Below, one piece after another: positions 41,856 to 50,008 of a stretch of 64,000 nt of DNA; the first letter of the stretch is position 1, and every line of letters begins with the position of its first letter. The translations under genes and the position numbers were made by a program. Below the pieces are notes generated by a model, which saw only the letters and a program-made list of their open reading frames with translations, made no database searches and had not been told where the DNA came from. The stretch comes from an uncultured Limosilactobacillus sp. (lineage in GTDB: Bacteria > Bacillota > Bacilli > Lactobacillales > Lactobacillaceae). Where the stretch lies: positions 14,337-78,336 of the forward strand of contig CALVGV010000002.1 of NCBI GenBank assembly GCA_944327195.1, written 5' to 3'.

Positions 41856-42029
41856 TAAAAAAGAGCCAGGAAATAATCCCAGCTCAAAATGGCTTGGTTA
41901 TTCAACCAGCAACCAGGCGGAATGTCCACTTTCCCCTGGTTAGGCCCCCCGCAATCCGGCGGGTTAACGGGCCCCCACGAGAGGACAGCCGAATAAGGGC
42001 CGGCTGCCAAACCTCTCAGCTCATCGCGT
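41856..42029 (-). ncRNA. Candidate small RNA or orphan leader of about 175 nt, class unknown
   Basis: On the minus strand, an extended -10 TGGTATAGT lies at 42043-42035. Four hairpins follow: GAGAGG..CAGCCG-N9-CGGCTG..CCTCTC, CCCGC-N6-GCGGG, CCAGG-N17-CCTGG, and TGGTT-N4-AACCA. A terminator GAGCUGGG-N7-CCUGGCUC plus UUUUUUA lies at 41885-41856. No plausible ORF. Confidence 0.45.
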
Positions 42030-42067
42030 CCCCTACTATACCACGATTTTGGGGCCGGGGAAAGGGG

Positions 42068-42949
42068 CTAGCTTCCCTCCCGCAGGGCGACCCAGAAGCT
42101 GGCCGCCAGCAGGAGCATCCCGATGAAGAAGCCGTGGGTTAGCGCCTCGCCCAGCACCAGCCAGCCGAGGACGGCGCCGACGACCGGCTGGAAGAGGAAG
42201 AAGAGCCCGGCCAGGTTGCTATCGAAGCGGCGCAGGCCGGCGTTCCACATCACGAAGGCCAGCGCGGTCGAGACCGCCCCGAGGTAGCCAATCTGCAGCA
42301 GGACCGGGGCGGCGGTCAGGTCGACCTTGCCGAGGGTTTGCCCCCAGTGGGTCAGCACCCAGGGCGTCAGGGTCACCAGGGCGACGACCACCGCCAAGAA
42401 GGTCACCTGGAGGGCGTCGTAGGCCGGATCGATCAGCTGCAAGAGGACCGACATCAGCGCCCAGGTCAGGGCCGCCACCAGCAGGCAGGCCGCCCCGGCG
42501 AGGAGCCGGTGGCCGGAGAACTGCCAGCCGACGATCACCAGGACCCCGGCCATCGCCAAGGCGAGGCTGGCCCAGTCGCCACGCTTGGGCCGCACCTTAC
42601 GCAGCCACCAGGCGAAGAGCACCATGAAGGCCGGGGTGGTGGTGGTCACCACCGCCCCCAACTGGGCCGAGGAGAGCCAGGTCCCGGTCTCCTGAAAGCA
42701 GATCGAGAGGGCGTTGCCCACCAGGCCGCAGAGGACGATCAGCAGGCCGTTCTTGCGGTCCCAGTGCCACTTCGGCCGGCGGATGGCCAAGAAGAGGGCC
42801 AGGGTGACCGCGGCCACCAGGTAGCGCAACCAGACGAGTTCGACCGGGGGAATCAGCTTGACGGCCGCCTTGACGACCACGAACATGCCACCCCAGATGC
42901 TGGCGGCCCCGGCCAAAAGCAGGGCGCCGATTAATTTATTCACTTTCAA
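42068..42949 (-). CDS. EamA/DMT-family transporter
   Basis: 293 aa, 10 TM helices, with a duplicated EamA-like organisation. TTG start lies 6 nt after GGAGG. Confidence 0.8.
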   Translation of the reverse strand: MKVNKLIGALLLAGAASIWGGMFVVVKAAVKLIPPVELVWLRYLVAAVTLALFLAIRRPKWHWDRKNGLLIVLCGLVGNALSICFQETGTWLSSAQLGAVVTTTTPAFMVLFAWWLRKVRPKRGDWASLALAMAGVLVIVGWQFSGHRLLAGAACLLVAALTWALMSVLLQLIDPAYDALQVTFLAVVVALVTLTPWVLTHWGQTLGKVDLTAAPVLLQIGYLGAVSTALAFVMWNAGLRRFDSNLAGLFFLFQPVVGAVLGWLVLGEALTHGFFIGMLLLAASFWVALREGS

Positions 42950-43058
42950 TGTTTACCTCCAATTCACTAGTGCAACGAGCAACTAGTGAACTGGCGCATC
43001 ATTTTCAAACAGCGGTGCGTAAAACACGGTCACCCCTCCTTTCGCTTCGGACCGGGCC

Positions 43059-43526
43059 CTACTTTTCCGCTTGGCGGTTTTCCATCGTTTGGGCCAGCTG
43101 CTGGGCCACCCATTCCTGAAGGGGCGGCAGGAGGCTGGCCACGTCGGCGGTTGCCAGCTGGGCTTCGGTTGCCAACTGGTCAATCCGCAGGCCGGACTTG
43201 TTCAGTTCCTCGCCCTCGGCCACCATGTAGAGGTTGAGCCCGCTGGCCTCGTCAGCCGCGAGCAGCTTGCCGTCGAGGCGGGCGGCGTCCTTGACCGGCA
43301 CGTTGATCAGGTTGACCTCCAGCCGCACGCTCACTGGGGTCCCCTTGCGCAGGCGCACCACCCACTCGTACTGGGCCAAATAGCCGCTGGCCAGCTGGTC
43401 GAGCACGAAGGTCAGCCCGCGCTTGAGGGCGGCCGGCTGCTGGACCGTCGCCCCGGTTAGTTCCTCACTCTTTGATTGGAGGTGGTCCTCCAGTTGACTT
43501 AAGTATTGATCCTTGGTTAACTTCAC
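43059..43526 (-). CDS. Hypothetical soluble protein
   Basis: 155-aa ORF with an ATGA overlap to the upstream membrane-protein gene. No recognisable motif. Confidence 0.55.
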   Translation of the reverse strand: MKLTKDQYLSQLEDHLQSKSEELTGATVQQPAALKRGLTFVLDQLASGYLAQYEWVVRLRKGTPVSVRLEVNLINVPVKDAARLDGKLLAADEASGLNLYMVAEGEELNKSGLRIDQLATEAQLATADVASLLPPLQEWVAQQLAQTMENRQAEK

Positions 43527-43927
43527 TTCAACCGCTCCCTCAATTTCCGATCCGAGTAAAACTTGCGTTGCATGATCCCGTACCAGATCCCGGCCAGGCT
43601 GGCCAGAAAGCCCACGATCGCCACCAGCTGGGTAAGGATGCCGACTAGGCTGGTGCGGTCGCTGACCTGGCTAAAGCCGCCAAAGTTGGCCAGCGCCCAC
43701 AGAATCATCGCCAGGATGGTCAGGTAGCCGTCGAAGCGCCAGTCGGCGATCGCCAGGCCGATGATCACCAGGGCCAGGATCAGCATCGTGGCCACCCGGC
43801 CGAGGACGACCCCGCTCAGCAGGTTGGTCCCTAGCTGGGCGTACATGGCCAGTTCAACGATGATCGTGCACAGGGCCGCCACCGCCGTGGTGCCAATTAC
43901 TTTGCTCCGGTTTTTATTATCTTTCAT
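43523..43927 (-). CDS. Hypothetical 4-TM membrane protein
   Basis: The MKDNKNRSK start at ATG 43927 is preferred over 43972. Four hydrophobic helices. Confidence 0.55.
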   Translation of the reverse strand: MKDNKNRSKVIGTTAVAALCTIIVELAMYAQLGTNLLSGVVLGRVATMLILALVIIGLAIADWRFDGYLTILAMILWALANFGGFSQVSDRTSLVGILTQLVAIVGFLASLAGIWYGIMQRKFYSDRKLRERLK

Positions 43928-44033
43928 GAATCCCCGTTCCTTTTGAAAACCTTTCTTCCCCATTCTACCCAAAGTCCCCGGGAAAGTCCAAGCTGGTTTA
44001 TAATGGAAGAAAACGAAACGAGGGGATCATCAG

Positions 44034-44486
44034 ATGCTGAATAACTCCTACAAAACAATCCTGGTACCGATTGACGGCTCCAAGGCCACCCCGAAGGTAA
44101 TGGCGGCCGCGATCAAGGTTGCCCAACTAAACGACGCCCACCTCGACATCCTAAACGTCGCCCAGGTGAACCAGATCGCCGATGGCTACGCCGACATCCT
44201 GGCCCTGAGCGAGGATCAAACCTTCGACCTGGTTCAGTTGGCCACCCAACGGTTGAACGACCTCAAGGACGAGGCGTTGGCCGCCGGGGTGAAGTCGGCT
44301 GACATCCACATCCGCTTCGGCAACCCCAAGCAGGTGATCGCCCGCGACTTCCCGCTCGATCACCACCCCGACCTGATCGTGATGGGGCGGACCGGGCTGA
44401 CCGCCCTCGAGCGGGTGCTGGTCGGCTCGGTCACCGCCTACGTTGAGCGCTTCGCCCCCTGCGACGTGCTGACGATCCGAATTTGA
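44034..44486 (+). CDS. Universal stress protein (UspA family)
   Basis: 150 aa with ILVPIDGS...GRTGLTALERVLVGSV, the typical Usp ATP-binding C-terminus. Confidence 0.85.
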   Translation: MLNNSYKTILVPIDGSKATPKVMAAAIKVAQLNDAHLDILNVAQVNQIADGYADILALSEDQTFDLVQLATQRLNDLKDEALAAGVKSADIHIRFGNPKQVIARDFPLDHHPDLIVMGRTGLTALERVLVGSVTAYVERFAPCDVLTIRI

Positions 44487-44546
44487 TTTTTCCAAGTTGA
44501 AGAAAGGGGCAAGGTTGCCACCGCCGTGGTTGCCTTGCCCACTTTT

Positions 44547-45071
44547 TTATCCTTGCCAGTGTTGGCGAAGGAACTGCTCCCGGCCGCCGGCCTCTTCCAG
44601 GGCCAGGCGGGCCGGGTTTTTCTTGTAGAAGTCTTGGTGGTAATCCTCGGCTAGGTAGAAGGGCTGGGCGTCCTCGATCGTGGTCACGATCTTGGCATCG
44701 CCAAACTCGCCGCTGGCCTGGAGGGCCGCCTTGGAGGCCTCGGCCACCTGCCGTTGGGCGGCGTCCTTGACAAAGATCACCGGTCGGTAGTTGTCGCCGC
44801 GGTCCTGGAACTGGCCGCTGGCGTCGGTCGGGTCGGTTTGGTGCCAGTAGATCTCCACCAGCTGGGCGTAGGTCACCTTGGCCGGGTCGAAGGTGATCCG
44901 CACCGCCTCGGTGTGCCCGGTCGTCCCGGAGCAGACCTGCTCGTAGGTTGGGTTGGCCACGTGACCCCCGGTGTAACCCGACTCTACCTTTTCGATCCCC
45001 GGATAGGTATCAAAGGGCTTGACCATGCACCAAAAACAACCCCCGGCAAAAATCGCGGTCTCAAGACTCAT
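44547..45071 (-). CDS. msrA: Peptide-methionine (S)-S-oxide reductase MsrA
   Basis: FAGGCFWC active-site motif. 174 aa. Confidence 0.9.
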
Positions 45072-45152
45072 TCGCGTCCCCTTCTCTCATTTGATTTTAA
45101 TCATAGTTTATTGGGGAATGGCGGCGCCGTCAACCATTTCGCCTGCTAGTGC

Positions 45153-45584
45153 TTAACTCCCGTGCGCATAGCGGTCAAAGCGCGCGTCGATCCCCAGGAG
45201 GTAGAAGAGGTTCTGGTTCTTCTTGCCGATTACCCGCCCCACGTTTCCGAGGCGAAAGACCCAGTAGTCGTCCTCGCACTCTTGGTAGCGCCGGCTCGCG
45301 GAAAAGGCCGGGTGCGTACTGAGGCTAACCGCCGCCTCCGGGAGTTTTTCCAGTCCCTGCCGCTTGTCGTAACCGAGGACCGTCACGATTTCATCCTGGG
45401 ACAACTGGTGGAGCCGTGAGAGGAGCTTCAACCGGACCCGCTGGTTAACCGTCTTGCTCCGGGCGTCGAGGTTGTACTTCGCGTCGCGCGTCAAAAAGGA
45501 GAGGTTGAAAGCAAAATAATCCTGGTGCTGGTGGCGGATCCGCGTCTTTTGGGTTGGTTCGGGAAAGTTGGGGTTAATTTTCAT
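45153..45584 (-). CDS. Uncharacterised 143-aa protein; candidate toxin partner of the Panacea-domain gene
   Basis: ATG 45584 (GGGGAGG 10 nt upstream) overlaps the upstream gene by 11 nt. The C-terminus YWVFRLGNVGRVIGKKNQNLFYLLGIDARFDRYAH has a RelE/HigB-like strand pattern. That resemblance is inference only. Confidence 0.5.
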   Translation of the reverse strand: MKINPNFPEPTQKTRIRHQHQDYFAFNLSFLTRDAKYNLDARSKTVNQRVRLKLLSRLHQLSQDEIVTVLGYDKRQGLEKLPEAAVSLSTHPAFSASRRYQECEDDYWVFRLGNVGRVIGKKNQNLFYLLGIDARFDRYAHGS

Positions 45585-46044
45585 CAAGCACAAACCTCCC
45601 CTGGTAGTAAGAACGAATGGCCTCGTCACTAATCACCCCACTCTGCGGGGTTTCCTTCCACGGCCGCTCGCGGTGGGTTTGGTTCATCAAATCAATCGCC
45701 GAAACGTGACCATAGACATCATACACGCTGTTGAGAAGGTCGCGCAGCTGGGGATCCTGCTGCAATTCCCGGTAGTCCGCCAGGTCCGCGGCGGTGATTT
45801 TGCCAACGATCTCGCGCTGGCCGGCATACTTGGCGTGGACCGCTTCGATTACCGGGCCGTACTTCCAGGCAACAATCCGGTTGTTGAAGAGGCGCTTCCC
45901 GGTCGTTGCCAGACTGGCCGCCTGAAAATAGTACAGCAACTTCATCGCCTTCATCTGGGTCAACACTTCCGCATTCGGGTTGGTCCGAACGTCCGCGTTG
46001 TTTTTAACCCGGAGCCAGTTTACCACCTTAAAGACGTCTACCAT
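45574..46044 (-). CDS. Panacea (DUF4065, SocA/GepA-like) domain protein; putative antitoxin
   Basis: LTQMKAMKLLYYFQAASLATTGKRLFNNRIVAWKYGPVIEAVHAKY matches the DUF4065 core pattern. ATG 46044 lies 6 nt after AGGAGGAG, and the track start at 46110 is rejected. Confidence 0.65.
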   Translation of the reverse strand: MVDVFKVVNWLRVKNNADVRTNPNAEVLTQMKAMKLLYYFQAASLATTGKRLFNNRIVAWKYGPVIEAVHAKYAGQREIVGKITAADLADYRELQQDPQLRDLLNSVYDVYGHVSAIDLMNQTHRERPWKETPQSGVISDEAIRSYYQGRFVLDEN

Positions 46045-46186
46045 GCCGATCTCCTCCTTACTACATTCACCGCTACCCTTCTTAATCAATTCTTGCCACC
46101 ATTTTATCATAGATATTCCCTAAATTCCAGTTAATTCGAAAATAAGTTTCCTTTAAAGGGTAATAAATTATATTTGTTCGCCGTTA

Positions 46187-46744
46187 TCACTCCGCTAGCA
46201 TCCGGTTCAAAGTCGCCCGCAGGTCGGCCACCTCCCCGGGGGTCAGGAAGCGGCCGCGGATGAGGCTGGCGCGGAAGATCTGGGCAAAGAGGCCGGTGAT
46301 CGCCTGGATCACCACCGGCGAGCTGGCCGGCAGGAGGGTCGCCAGCCGGCTGGCGGCGTAGTCCTGGCAGCGCTGGGCCAGTCCCTGGCGGTCGTACTGG
46401 ATGTCCAGCAGGGTCAAGAGGCGCCGGCGGTTGGTCCCGCTGAGAAAGGCCGCCTGCTCCTGTTGTTCCAGGAAGTGGCGAAAGACCGCCGGCGACGCCC
46501 CGCTGGTGAAGGCCGTGAAGCGGCGGTCGAAGAACTCGGTCAGCTGGGCGAAGGTCGTTGCCACCAGTTGGTCGGTCAGTTCGTACTTGTCGTGGTAGTA
46601 GTTGTAAAAGGTCTGGCGGTTGATCAGCGCCCGGTCGGCAATCGCTTGGACGGTCACCGCCCGAAAGCCCCGCTCCTGCACCAGGTCCAAAAAGGCCGCC
46701 TGGATCAGCCGCTCCATCCGCGCCTGCCGCTTTGTCTCTGCCAT
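46187..46744 (-). CDS. TetR/AcrR family transcriptional regulator
   Basis: TetR HTH (VTVQAIADRALINRQTFYNYY). Divergent from the HXXEE membrane protein gene. Confidence 0.85.
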   Translation of the reverse strand: MAETKRQARMERLIQAAFLDLVQERGFRAVTVQAIADRALINRQTFYNYYHDKYELTDQLVATTFAQLTEFFDRRFTAFTSGASPAVFRHFLEQQEQAAFLSGTNRRRLLTLLDIQYDRQGLAQRCQDYAASRLATLLPASSPVVIQAITGLFAQIFRASLIRGRFLTPGEVADLRATLNRMLAE

Positions 46745-46861
46745 CTTTTCTGCTCCTTTTTCCGACAGCTGTCGTTTTAATTGTCGATCGTCACCTCATT
46801 GTAGTGCTCCGCCGGACCCGCGGCAAGGATAATAAGGGAAAAGAAGAAAGGAGTGAGTGCA

Positions 46862-47527
46862 ATGAAATGGTTTCAACGGTACTGGTACGACCTCGGCCTC
46901 GGCGCCCTCGTGGTGGTCGCGCTCGTGATGGTCCTGACCTGGCGACGCAGTTCGACCCTGGAAAAGCTGGCCCTGGCCAACTTGGGAGCAATCCTCTGGC
47001 ACCAGTTTGAGGAGTACCACTTTCCGGGCGGCGAGCCGGCGATCATGAACCTGGCGATGAACTACCAGGAGGGGGGCCAGCACGACCGCGCCCCGCTCAA
47101 CCAGAAGAACGCGATGGTGATCAACGTTGGCGGCGACCTCTTCTACCTGCTGCCCTGCCTCTTCCCGCGGGTGGGCTGGCTGGCCTTCGCCCCGGTGGCC
47201 TTCGGCCTGGCCCAGGTGATCGGCCACGTGGTCGTGACCCCGAAGCTGGTCGGCAACCACTTCTACACCCCGGGTGCCCTGGCCACCGTCTGCGGCCACC
47301 TGCCAATCGGAATTGCCTGGTTTACGGTCACCATCAAGGATGGGCTGCTGGACTGGGGCAACGCCCTCGGCGGCCTGGTTTACCTAGTCTGCTTCATCGG
47401 CCTCTTCATGCGCAAGTTCGGCTACGAACACCTGGCTTCCACCGCGGACCAAGATGCCTTTGGCGAGGACGAGTTTGAACGCGGCGGCTACGCGGCGCGG
47501 ATCCGTCTCTTGAAGCAAGAAAACTAG
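46862..47527 (+). CDS. HXXEE domain-containing membrane protein
   Basis: Contains HQFEEYHFPGG (the HXXEE motif) and several TM helices. ATG 46862 lies 8 nt after GGAG. Confidence 0.65.
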   Translation: MKWFQRYWYDLGLGALVVVALVMVLTWRRSSTLEKLALANLGAILWHQFEEYHFPGGEPAIMNLAMNYQEGGQHDRAPLNQKNAMVINVGGDLFYLLPCLFPRVGWLAFAPVAFGLAQVIGHVVVTPKLVGNHFYTPGALATVCGHLPIGIAWFTVTIKDGLLDWGNALGGLVYLVCFIGLFMRKFGYEHLASTADQDAFGEDEFERGGYAARIRLLKQEN

Positions 47528-47545
47528 TTGGCGGTAGCCCAAAAA

Positions 47546-47576
47546 AGCCCCCGGCGCAATTGCCGGAGGCTTTTTC
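47546..47576. terminator. Bidirectional intrinsic terminator (HXXEE gene / xpk)
   Basis: AAAAAAGCCCCCGGC-N6-GCCGGAGGCTTTTTC. Confidence 0.7.
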
Positions 47577-47608
47577 GTACTTAATTTATGACGCGTTTGT
47601 CGTAGTTA

Positions 47609-50008
47609 TTACTTGAGGCCCTTCCAGGTCCAGTCCTTAACTTCCGGCATGTCATCGCCGTAAGTCCGGATGTAGTGGTTGTGCTTTGCAACCATGTCGT
47701 CCATCTTTTGGGCGAAGGCGGCACCCTTTTGTTCGTAACCAGCCACGCTCAGGATTGCGTCCTTGGCAAGGTGGTAACGGTCAAGTTCGTTCAGTACCCG
47801 CATGTCGAACGGCGTGGTGATGTCCCCGTTTTCGATGTAGCTGTGGATGTGAACGTTGCGGTTGTGCCGTGGGAAGAAGAGGCTTTGCATCATGTCACGG
47901 AAGCCGTGCCATGCGAAGATAACCGGCTTGTCAGCGGTGAAGTAACGGTCGAATTCTTCGTCGGACAGCCCTTCTGGGTTCTTGTCCAGCGTCATCATCT
48001 TCATTACGTCAACCACGTTCAGAACACGGATCTTCAGTTCTGGGAAGGCGTCGTGCAGCAGGTCAGCAGCAGCGAAGACTTCTTCAGTCGGTTCCGTCCC
48101 GGAAGCAGCCAGCACAACGTCTGGTTCTGCGCCTTGGTCAGTGGATGCCCAGTCGATGTAGCCGAGGCCGTTTGCAACCAGTTCAGTTGCTTCGTCGATG
48201 GAGAACCATTGTACCCGTGGGTGCTTGGAAGTTACCAGCACGTTGATCTTTTCCTTTTCACGGAAGATCTTGTCGGAAACAGCCAACAGGGTGTTGGTGT
48301 CGGCCGGCAGGTATTCACCGATCATGTCTGGGCGTTCCTTTTCGTAAAGGTGCGTCAGCAGACCTGGGTCTTGGTGAGTGTAACCGTTGTGGTCTTGTTG
48401 GAAGACCGTGGAAGTGTCCACGAAGGTCAATGCCGGGTAGTCGTTCCGCCAGTATTGTTCCTTGGCCTTGCGCATCCACTTCATGTGTTGGGTCAGCATC
48501 GAGTCAACCACGCGCCCGAAGGATTCGTAGGTTGCGAAGTAACCGTGACGACCAGTCAGAGTGTACCCTTCAAGGAACCCTTCTGCTTGGTGTTCGGACA
48601 GTTGCGAGTCGATGATCCGGCCGTTTACGGACAGGTCTTCGTCGTTCGGTTCGTGAACGGAAGCCGTCCAAGTCCGCTTTGCGTCGTCAAGGGCAGCGTA
48701 AAGACGGTTGGACTTGGATTCGTCCGGCCCGAAGCCGCGGAAGTTGTTCGGGTTAAGTTCCATCATCTTGGCGATGTACTTACCCCATTCGATCATGTCT
48801 TGGTGCTTTTCCGTGCCGTGGTTCTTCACGTCAACGGCAAAGTCACGGTAGTTTGGCATCCGGAGAGCCTTTTGGTTAGCCCCACCGTTGGTTTCTGGGT
48901 TGATTGCCATCCGCATTTCAGCGGCCGGAACGTTTGCCCGAACGGCGTCAACCGGGTAGCCGTTTTCGTCGAAGAGTTCTTCCGGCTTGTAGGACTTCAT
49001 CCAGTCAACCAGCATGTCCTTGTGTTCCATGGCGTCTTGTGCCACCGGAATCGGAATTTGGTGTGCCCGGAAGGAGTTTTCGATCGGGTTACCGTCGAGG
49101 TCCTTGGTTGGGCCAGTCCAGCCCTTCGGTACCCGGAAGACGATAACTGGCCAGCGAGCCATCGAACCATCGTTGTTTTCGCGAGCAGTCTTTTGGATGC
49201 TCTTGATTTCTTCGATGGCTTCGTCCATTACCTTAGCCATTTCTTCGTGGACTTCCATGTGGTCCTTGAGGCCATCGAATTCGCCGTCCTTGTATGCGGA
49301 GACGAAGTATGGCTTCCAGCCAAGCCCTTCGAAGTACTTAGTAACTTCTTCGTTGCTCATCCGCGAGATCATCGTCGGGTTGGAAATCTTGAACCCGTTA
49401 ACTTGAACGATCGGCAGAACGGCCCCGTCAGTAACCGGGTTGATGAAGCGGTTGGAGAACCAGGAAGCGGCCAGCGGGCCAGTTTCGAATTCCCCGTCCC
49501 CGATTTCAACGGCAGCGATTTGGTCTGGGTTGTCGAGGATTGCCCCAACCCCGTGGGACAATGCGTAACCCAGTTCCCCACCTTCGTGAAGGGAGCCCGG
49601 CGTTTCCGGAGCGGCGTGGGAAGCAGTCCCACCTGGGAAGGAGAAGTGCTTGAACAGCTTTGCCATCCCGGCTTCGTCTTGGGTGATTTCTGGGTAGATT
49701 TCAGTGTAGGAGCCGTCAAGGTAAGAGTTGTTAACCATGACTTGGCCACCGTGACCGGAACCTTCGATGTAGAACATCTTCACGCCGTACTTCTTGATAA
49801 CCCGGTTCAAGTGGGCGTAAATGAAGTTTTGCGGAACGATCGTCCCCCAGTGACCAATCGGCTTCGGCTTAACGTCTTCTGCCTTCAGTTCCCGCCGCAG
49901 GAGAGGGTTGTGCATCAAGAACAACGTCCCAACGGAGAGGTAGTTAGCAGCACGCCAGTAAGCATCAACATTTTCCAAGTAAGCCTTGGAGTCGTAATCT
50001 ACTGCCAT
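47609..50008 (-). CDS. xpk: Xylulose-5-phosphate/fructose-6-phosphate phosphoketolase
   Basis: 799 aa. XFP-family N-terminus [27 protein letters not shown]...IGHWGT and EGSGHGG. Confidence 0.9.

Follow-up and report, generated by a model that had tools for sequence, protein, structure and literature searches.

In a 64,000-nucleotide (nt) stretch of the uncultured Limosilactobacillus sp. contig CALVGV010000002.1, hereafter called the window, two overlapping genes on the minus strand, panA (45574–46044) and panT (45153–45584), very probably form a PanA-PanT pair in which the predicted toxin belongs to cluster T1 of Kurata et al. (2022; PNAS 119:e2102212119; PMC8832971). That study defined PanA-PanT systems and predicted 1,268 pairs with 88 toxin clusters, and cluster T1, with ∼217 rows in its Dataset S1, is about as large as the MqsR cluster T2 (∼218 rows). 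The T1 pairs in Dataset S1 include those of L. fermentum SRCM103285 (gap, −17), L. coleohominis 101-4-CHN (−11), L. parabrevis LMG 11984 (0), and L. jensenii (−17) (PMC8832971). We detected homologues of the window toxin in L. coleohominis 101-4-CHN (L016), with 61% identity and an 11-nt overlap between the two genes, in L. parabrevis ATCC 53295 (L023), with a gap of 0, and in L. jensenii DSM 20557 (L020), with a 17-nt overlap; each of these spacings equals the published one. Furthermore, orf161 of Salmonella phage Emek (JQ806763), which is a T1 member, matched the profile of the PanT family with an hhalign probability of 98.9% (E = 1.2e-17). Because the loci and their gene gaps match the published T1 pairs, and because Emek orf161 matches the family profile, the PanT of the window is equated here with the PanT of cluster T1. 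The original prediction for this DNA had suggested that the toxin family might be undescribed, and this suggestion does not hold: the window pair is a new copy, in a new host and at a new chromosomal site, of an already predicted family that was catalogued, with its fold anticipated, in 2022 (PMC8832971).

The organization of the window pair is also that of a T1 system. A stand-alone Panacea protein, called “noNTD” by Kurata et al. (2022), is encoded first and the toxin second, with a small overlap, and the toxins of this cluster are ∼140–160 amino acids (aa) long and annotated as hypothetical proteins. The window copy differs in that it is present in a host of higher guanine-cytosine (GC) content, and in that it lies between tetR and msrA instead of in a prophage. 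The MqsR-type PanT systems of cluster T2 are similar insofar as they combine a ribonuclease (RNase) of the RelE superfamily with a Panacea-containing partner and are common in Lactobacillaceae. However, the T2 toxin gene precedes the antitoxin gene and the T2 antitoxins have a helix-turn-helix (HTH) domain (Dataset S1, PMC8832971), whereas the window pair has the reverse order and no HTH domain. In addition, the T2 antitoxin of B. fungorum neutralizes its toxin through a Zn-binding domain, not through Panacea (PMC10440598), and the T2 toxins match the MqsR model, whereas the window PanT does not.

Linkage of PanT to PanA Across Homologues

The gene neighborhood was inspected for the homologous proteins P0001, P0002, P0004, P0023, P0034, P0036, P0038, and P0042 and for the distant members P0103, P0111, P0145, and P0185. 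At these loci, both prophage and chromosomal, a Panacea gene was located directly upstream of panT, in the same orientation and usually overlapping it, with only a remnant in L024, and the pairing held for family members that are only 23–27% identical to the window PanT. When 11 loci from as many GTDB species-representative genomes (Limosilactobacillus, Lactobacillus, Levilactobacillus, and one Clostridium metagenome-assembled genome) were considered, 10 had an upstream PanA, L024 being the exception. The conserved adjacency to DUF4065 genes that the original prediction had named as a check on its proposal is thus borne out at the loci inspected. The 11-nt overlap of the window recurs in L. 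coleohominis and in the metagenome contig L042, and in other members the genes overlap by 17 nt or abut without a gap. As in the pairs predicted by Kurata et al. (2022), the partner is within 100 nt and the two-gene architecture recurs across species and genera.

In the exception, Lactobacillus delbrueckii subsp. delbrueckii DSM 20074 (L024:2420–2920), PanA is cut to ∼18 residues and fused in frame to the N-terminus of the toxin, and the toxin itself is interrupted after approximately residue 75. The loss of PanA together with a broken toxin fits the logic of a toxin-antitoxin system, as a single case. A different situation was found in the metagenome contigs L042 (410–880) and L043, which carry P0002, a toxin 78% identical to the window PanT. 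Here, the PanA frame is intact and 79% identical to the window PanA, and was not called by the gene caller; in L042, the start codon is changed from ATG to ACG and is followed by ATT, the downstream toxin is intact, and the toxin protein occurs on 12 contigs. The ACG could be a non-canonical start or could mark a weakly expressed antitoxin.

The genes flanking the pair vary considerably. In prophages (L001 and L007), the pair precedes the genes for the small and large terminase and the portal; in L026, L033, and L036 it comes just after holin and endolysin/amidase genes, in L010 it adjoins a capsule (cps) locus, and in the window it lies beside the housekeeping genes msrA and tetR. Such variation is what a mobile module of two genes shows, and accessory genes of prophages typically behave in this way. 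A chromosomal copy of such a mobile PanA-PanT module is the best explanation for the window pair.

Several other arrangements were observed at the homologous loci. In L. parabrevis (L023:199–2383) and L. fuyuanensis (L025:1349–3539), the genes occur in the tandem order PanA-PanA-PanT-PanA, with one T1 toxin each, and the three PanA paralogues are divergent (37–43% identical to the window PanA). The toxin of L025 is frameshifted at “WIFV*”, just ahead of the conserved Arg residues. Lactobacillus phage JNU_P1, the host of which is L. fermentum, encodes a PanA of 184 aa that is 58% identical to the window PanA and is paired with a Doc toxin (L041:1995–2950); this pair is situated between an ArpU regulator gene and the gene for an HNH endonuclease, close to the end of the record. 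It is a clear example of a swap of the predicted toxin partner between close PanAs, which is typical for PanA. In Latilactobacillus phage TMW 1.706 P2, an induced and purified temperate phage, the PanA-T1 pair directly follows the holin/amidase genes (L026:2949–3848), and its PanA matches SocA_Panacea with E = 3.8e-20. The PanA proteins of both JNU_P1 and TMW 1.706 P2 are mis-annotated as “Cro/CI family transcriptional regulator.”

The Predicted Antitoxin PanA

The assignment of the upstream 156-aa protein to the DUF4065/Panacea domain, as originally predicted, is confirmed by a profile search. The window PanA matched Pfam PF13274 (SocA_Panacea, formerly DUF4065) with E = 7.5e-18 and a score of 65.9 bits (cut-off, 25.7 bits), and the match covered positions 2–113 of the 113 positions of the profile. 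PanA also matched phrog_10390 (E = 3e-38) and phrog_1281 (E = 2.7e-34). It has no domain besides Panacea, and no extra neutralizing domain at either its N- or C-terminus, and is therefore a stand-alone PanA, of the kind that Kurata et al. (2022) call “noNTD.” Its identity to the PanA proteins of the homologous loci is 55–69%, falling to 41–43% at L023 and L025, the two loci from Levilactobacillus.

The type VI system SocAB of Caulobacter also has a Panacea domain in its antitoxin; SocA is an adaptor of the protease ClpXP, and SocB targets the DnaN clamp. The window PanA matched the SocA equivalog model of NCBIfam (NF047745) only in part, with 56.5 bits and E = 2.7e-15. We rejected orthology to SocA because this score is far under the equivalog cut-off of 190 bits, and PanA is a relative of SocA at the level of the domain only. 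The window PanT, for its part, is unrelated to SocB.

A stand-alone Panacea domain has been reported to neutralize its toxin by direct contact in B. choladocola and G. mesophilus (PMC10440598), and by analogy with these systems the window PanA probably neutralizes PanT by direct binding. The authors of the NetFlax study have also proposed a mainly sensory role for Panacea (PMC10440598).

Conserved Residues and Predicted Fold of PanT

The window PanT had no match in Pfam, NCBIfam, or PADLOC, and searches of the PDB sequences with PanT, by phmmer, and with a profile of 127 family sequences found nothing relevant. It matched phrog_38762 (E = 4e-11), a PHROG family of unknown function. The close relatives of PanT form 42 clusters, mostly from Limosilactobacillus and Lactobacillus, and when 1.8 billion representatives were searched with a profile, the result was 275 representative clusters at E ≤ 0.001, nearly all of which are 130–160 aa long and match from end to end. 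Residue conservation was counted in an alignment of 127 diverse members, with the residues numbered from M1 of the full protein. E79 was conserved in 126 of the 127 sequences, R111 in 122/127, R117 in 126/127, and Y139 in 124/124; F26, S62, K74, G77, D133, and H141 were also near-invariant, and the window PanT retains every one of these near-invariant residues. E79, R111, R117, D133, Y139, and H141 would suit the active site of a RelE/YoeB-type RNase. Residues 24–32 carry the motif F-x-F-N-[FL]-S-F-[LI]-T, which is among the best-conserved parts of the family and lies outside the canonical RelE core. This region, referred to below as FNFSFLT, may add a strand to the sheet or serve as a PanA-binding element.

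Two structural models of PanT were built with AlphaFold2. The first, based on an alignment of 39 sequences, had a predicted local distance difference test score (pLDDT) of 87.5, and the second, based on the 127-sequence alignment, had a pLDDT of 94.2 and a predicted template modeling score (pTM) of 0.84. In both models, FNFSFLT forms a short strand and is followed by two helices, a short strand spanning G77–E79, two short helices in the insert, an antiparallel sheet of three strands, and a tail, so the shared topology is beta-alpha-alpha-(insert)-beta-beta-beta; R111 and R117 are placed on the C-terminal sheet and Y139-x-H141 in the C-terminal tail. When the PDB was searched with Foldseek, nearly all of the top 35 neighbors of both models were RNases of the RelE superfamily, including RelE (1wmi and 2khe), YoeB (2a6r, 7v5y, 7v6w, and 6l8e), HigB, YafQ, GraT, and the RelE-like CRISPR effector Cami1. 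The top 50 neighbors included no ParE gyrase inhibitor. A fold search of the viral structures in BFVD gave one plausible, unnamed match (H9YQY0, E = 0.026), the rest being noise. The strand pattern reminiscent of RelE/HigB-type toxins that had been noted in the 143-aa protein from its letters alone agrees with these searches. We infer from the models that PanT has a RelE/YoeB-like fold and active site; this is the best-supported reading of the protein, short of demonstrated membership of the superfamily.

The comparison with YoeB, RelE, HigB, and YafQ, which are the top structural neighbors, shows both resemblances and differences. The predicted core of PanT resembles theirs in its beta-alpha-alpha-beta-beta-beta topology, and its Glu, two Arg on the sheet, and C-terminal Tyr/His resemble E46, R59/R65, and H83/Y84 of YoeB, the sequence of which was checked against 2a6q. 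The catalytic roles of these YoeB residues reportedly go back to Kamada and Hanaoka in 2005. However, PanT exceeds the toxins of this group by ∼55 residues: its N-terminus is extended by ∼45 residues, which include the invariant FNFSFLT strand, and an inserted segment of ∼25 residues contains two short helices. It also has no detectable sequence similarity to them, and its partner is Panacea and not YefM, RelB, HigA, or DinJ.

Proposed Mechanism and Alternative Explanations

We consider it moderately probable, at approximately 60%, that the pair acts as a type II cassette in which PanT is an RNase of the RelE/YoeB fold that is silenced by PanA and released by a trigger. According to this proposal, panA and panT would be co-transcribed from their own promoter and coupled in translation through the 11-nt overlap. 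PanT would be a RelE/YoeB-fold protein that is extended at its N-terminus by a family-specific segment with the FNFSFLT strand and has a helical insert ahead of the C-terminal sheet of three strands, and would most likely act as a ribosome-dependent endonuclease of messenger RNA that halts translation, its chemistry and its dependence on the ribosome being suggested by the toxins that it resembles. In the candidate catalytic set, E79 would act as the base, R111 and R117 would bind the phosphate or the transition state, and Y139-x-H141 would provide the acid, in parallel with E46/R65/H83/Y84 of YoeB. PanA, as a bare Panacea domain, would bind PanT and silence it directly, as other stand-alone PanAs do. 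Infection by a phage or loss of PanA would then probably free PanT and so arrest growth. The likely role would be the defense of the prophage or host, or the maintenance of the element; this role is proposed because most of the relatives occupy accessory positions of prophages, next to genes for terminase or lysis.

Several results weigh against this proposal. At the level of structure, the E-values of the Foldseek matches were 0.03–2 (best, 0.03–0.04), so none was ≤ 0.001; their probabilities reached 0.98, and their template modeling scores, normalized to the target, were 0.46–0.64. No link at the sequence level was found between PanT and the family models of RelE, YoeB, HigB, YafQ, or ParE in Pfam, NCBIfam, or the PDB sequences. 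When the 127 family members were scanned against Pfam, there was one marginal match to HigB_toxin (E = 0.044) and otherwise only scattered single matches. The alignment of the family profile by hhalign with a profile of four YoeB sequences, made from PDB alignments, was not significant (E = 0.12, probability < 1%), nor was that with E. coli YoeB alone. The non-significant register aligns W108, R111, and R117 with W56, R59, and R65 of YoeB and is usable as a hint only. At the level of the operon, classical autoregulation is unsupported, because PanA lacks a DNA-binding domain and the panA promoter region (46030–46200) yielded no operator-like inverted repeat; the window pair thus lacks the DNA-binding, autoregulating antitoxin of a classical type II operon, and the NetFlax authors doubt that Panacea is a transcriptional autoregulator (PMC10440598). 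At the level of function, the proposal is favored by the label “mRNase” that Table S1 gives the tested T1 proteins, as a predicted mode of action, and by the toxicity of the C. cadaveris T1 toxin in E. coli, but the published assays fall short of establishing a T1 toxin-antitoxin pair: the C. cadaveris toxin was not neutralized by its PanA, those of phage Emek and E. coli MOD1 showed no toxicity in E. coli, and none of the three tested T1 pairs was validated as neutralizable (PMC8832971). Of the type II cassette originally predicted, the obligate, conserved pairing and the antitoxin-then-toxin order stand, whereas the published assay of the one toxic T1 member saw no neutralization.

These assays, in which two of the three T1 members were non-toxic and PanA did not rescue the third (PMC8832971), are what would be expected if the pair were a conserved accessory module of phages and prophages in which PanT does not arrest growth but is a regulator that binds RNA or the ribosome, or an effector against incoming phages only, with PanA as its partner or sensor and not its antidote. 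The accessory-gene positions of most relatives in prophages, the view of the NetFlax authors that sensing is the main function of Panacea (PMC10440598), and the L042 contig, in which the panA start codon is altered and panT is intact, with the toxin on 12 contigs, point in the same direction. Nevertheless, we regard this explanation as unlikely. One T1 member was toxic (PMC8832971), and E. coli is a distant host for proteins of Firmicutes. The non-toxic protein of Salmonella phage vB_SemP_Emek (orf161; L040:1529–2011) has Ala at the position of R117, with E79, R111, Y139, and H141 kept, so it may be an inactive variant, and this substitution may explain its lack of toxicity. In L024, moreover, the toxin is truncated alongside the loss of PanA, and the strictly conserved charged residues of the family resemble an active site.

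The remaining explanations concern the target of PanT and the manner of its control. The RelE/ParE fold is common to RNases and gyrase inhibitors (PMC10440598), and evidence from the fold alone cannot separate them, so PanT might instead have this fold and be a ParE-like poison of DNA gyrase. This is very improbable: the top neighbors were all RNases (YoeB, RelE, HigB, YafQ, GraT, and Cami1), the Glu/Arg/Arg/Tyr/His set is kept, its Y-x-H lying at the very C-terminus as is also the case for YoeB, HigB, and YafQ, and Kurata et al. class T1 as an mRNase (PMC8832971). It is also quite improbable that the pair works as a SocAB-like, type VI system, in which PanA would hand PanT to the protease ClpXP for continuous degradation, without sequestration. 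Panacea was first characterized in SocA, and the window PanA has the partial match to SocA_antitoxin described above, but its 56.5 bits against a cut-off of 190 indicate that it is no orthologue, and its partner is unrelated to SocB, which constitutes cluster T10 (PMC8832971). Validated PanAT pairs are reported to form complexes (PMC8832971), which indicates direct neutralization. A type II cassette with a RelE/YoeB-fold RNase held in check by PanA is the reading that we favor.

Gene Layout and Genomic Context

The details of the locus were found as originally described, including the 11-nt overlap with the 143-aa open reading frame (ORF), the Shine-Dalgarno sequence, and the flanking msrA and tetR genes, and the peptide motifs quoted in that description (LTQMKAMKLLYYFQ, RIVAWKYGPVIEAVHAKY, and DDYWVFRLGNVGRVIGKKNQNLFYLLGIDARFDRYAH) are all present. 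The panA gene is an ORF of 156 aa on the minus strand, with its ATG at 46044 and its stop at 45574, and panT is an ORF of 143 aa on the same strand, with its ATG at 45584 and its stop at 45153. The two genes share exactly 11 nt (45574–45584, minus strand; ATGAAAATTAA), which contain the stop region of panA and the start of panT, implying translational coupling. The Shine-Dalgarno sequence AAGGAGG of panA (46053–46059, minus strand), read from the sequence, lies 8 nt before the ATG at 46044, and that of panT, GGAGG (45595–45599, minus strand), was read within the 3′ end of panA, 10 nt before the ATG at 45584. Upstream of panA there is a promoter-like site (46106–46134, minus strand) consisting of TTAACT, 17 nt, and TATGAT, which is a match to the sigma-70-like consensus only. 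Two longer frames were considered and rejected. A panA ORF of 178 aa, starting at 46110, would have its ATG inside the predicted −10 box, and its N-terminal extension is not conserved in the homologues; the N-terminal extension of a panT ORF of 158 aa, starting at 45629, is likewise not conserved.

The pair is flanked on the minus strand by msrA (PMSR; 44547–45071) on one side and by a gene for a regulator with a TetR_N domain (tetR; 46187–46744) on the other, and the further neighbors encode a universal stress protein and an HXXEE protein. The order tetR-panA-panT-msrA recurs at 99% identity on several metagenome contigs. The exact sequences of PanA and PanT were absent from a collection of 15 billion proteins, and the nearest PanT cluster, which is 99% identical, comes from metagenome assemblies only. 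The GC content of the panAT cassette is 0.56–0.58 and that of its promoter is 0.48, compared with 0.59–0.68 in the flanks. In the region 42000–49000, many windows of 400 nt had a GC content of 0.59–0.70, which is unusually high for a gene set that is Lactobacillaceae-like; such genes in this region are those for phosphoketolase, msrA, Usp, and EamA.

We also compared the window pair with the 78–79%-identical pair in L042. The number of nonsynonymous substitutions per nonsynonymous site (dN) was 0.16 for PanA and 0.20 for PanT, and the synonymous sites were saturated, so that no ratio to the synonymous rate (dN/dS) is given. Based on these dN values at saturated synonymous sites, we infer that both genes are under purifying selection.

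Implications for Cluster T1

These results bear first on annotation. The 143-aa “hypothetical protein” of the window can be renamed as PanT (T1), a predicted toxin of the RelE fold, and its neighbor as PanA, and the phage records in which PanA is mis-annotated as “Cro/CI regulator” are flagged. No new kind of system is added. T1 accounts for ∼217 of the 1,268 predicted PanAT pairs, and it has no Pfam model and no validated neutralization; it ranks among the two largest families of Panacea partners and has failed the standard toxin-antitoxin assay in E. coli. For this family, the present analysis supplies candidate catalytic residues and an intact pair from Lactobacillaceae with which to ask whether T1 proteins are genuine toxins and how a bare Panacea domain controls them.

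A more tentative proposal, which we hold to be doubtful, is that T1 is a prophage-borne RelE-fold RNase that depends on a trigger and is not a classical addiction toxin. The N-terminal FNFSFLT extension and PanA would then together form a switch, gated by a sensor, that serves abortive infection or superinfection exclusion. If this were true, the effector would act only on the native ribosomes of Firmicutes or only after a cue from a phage, and the intact, chromosomally fixed copy in the window would be a convenient model in which to test it.

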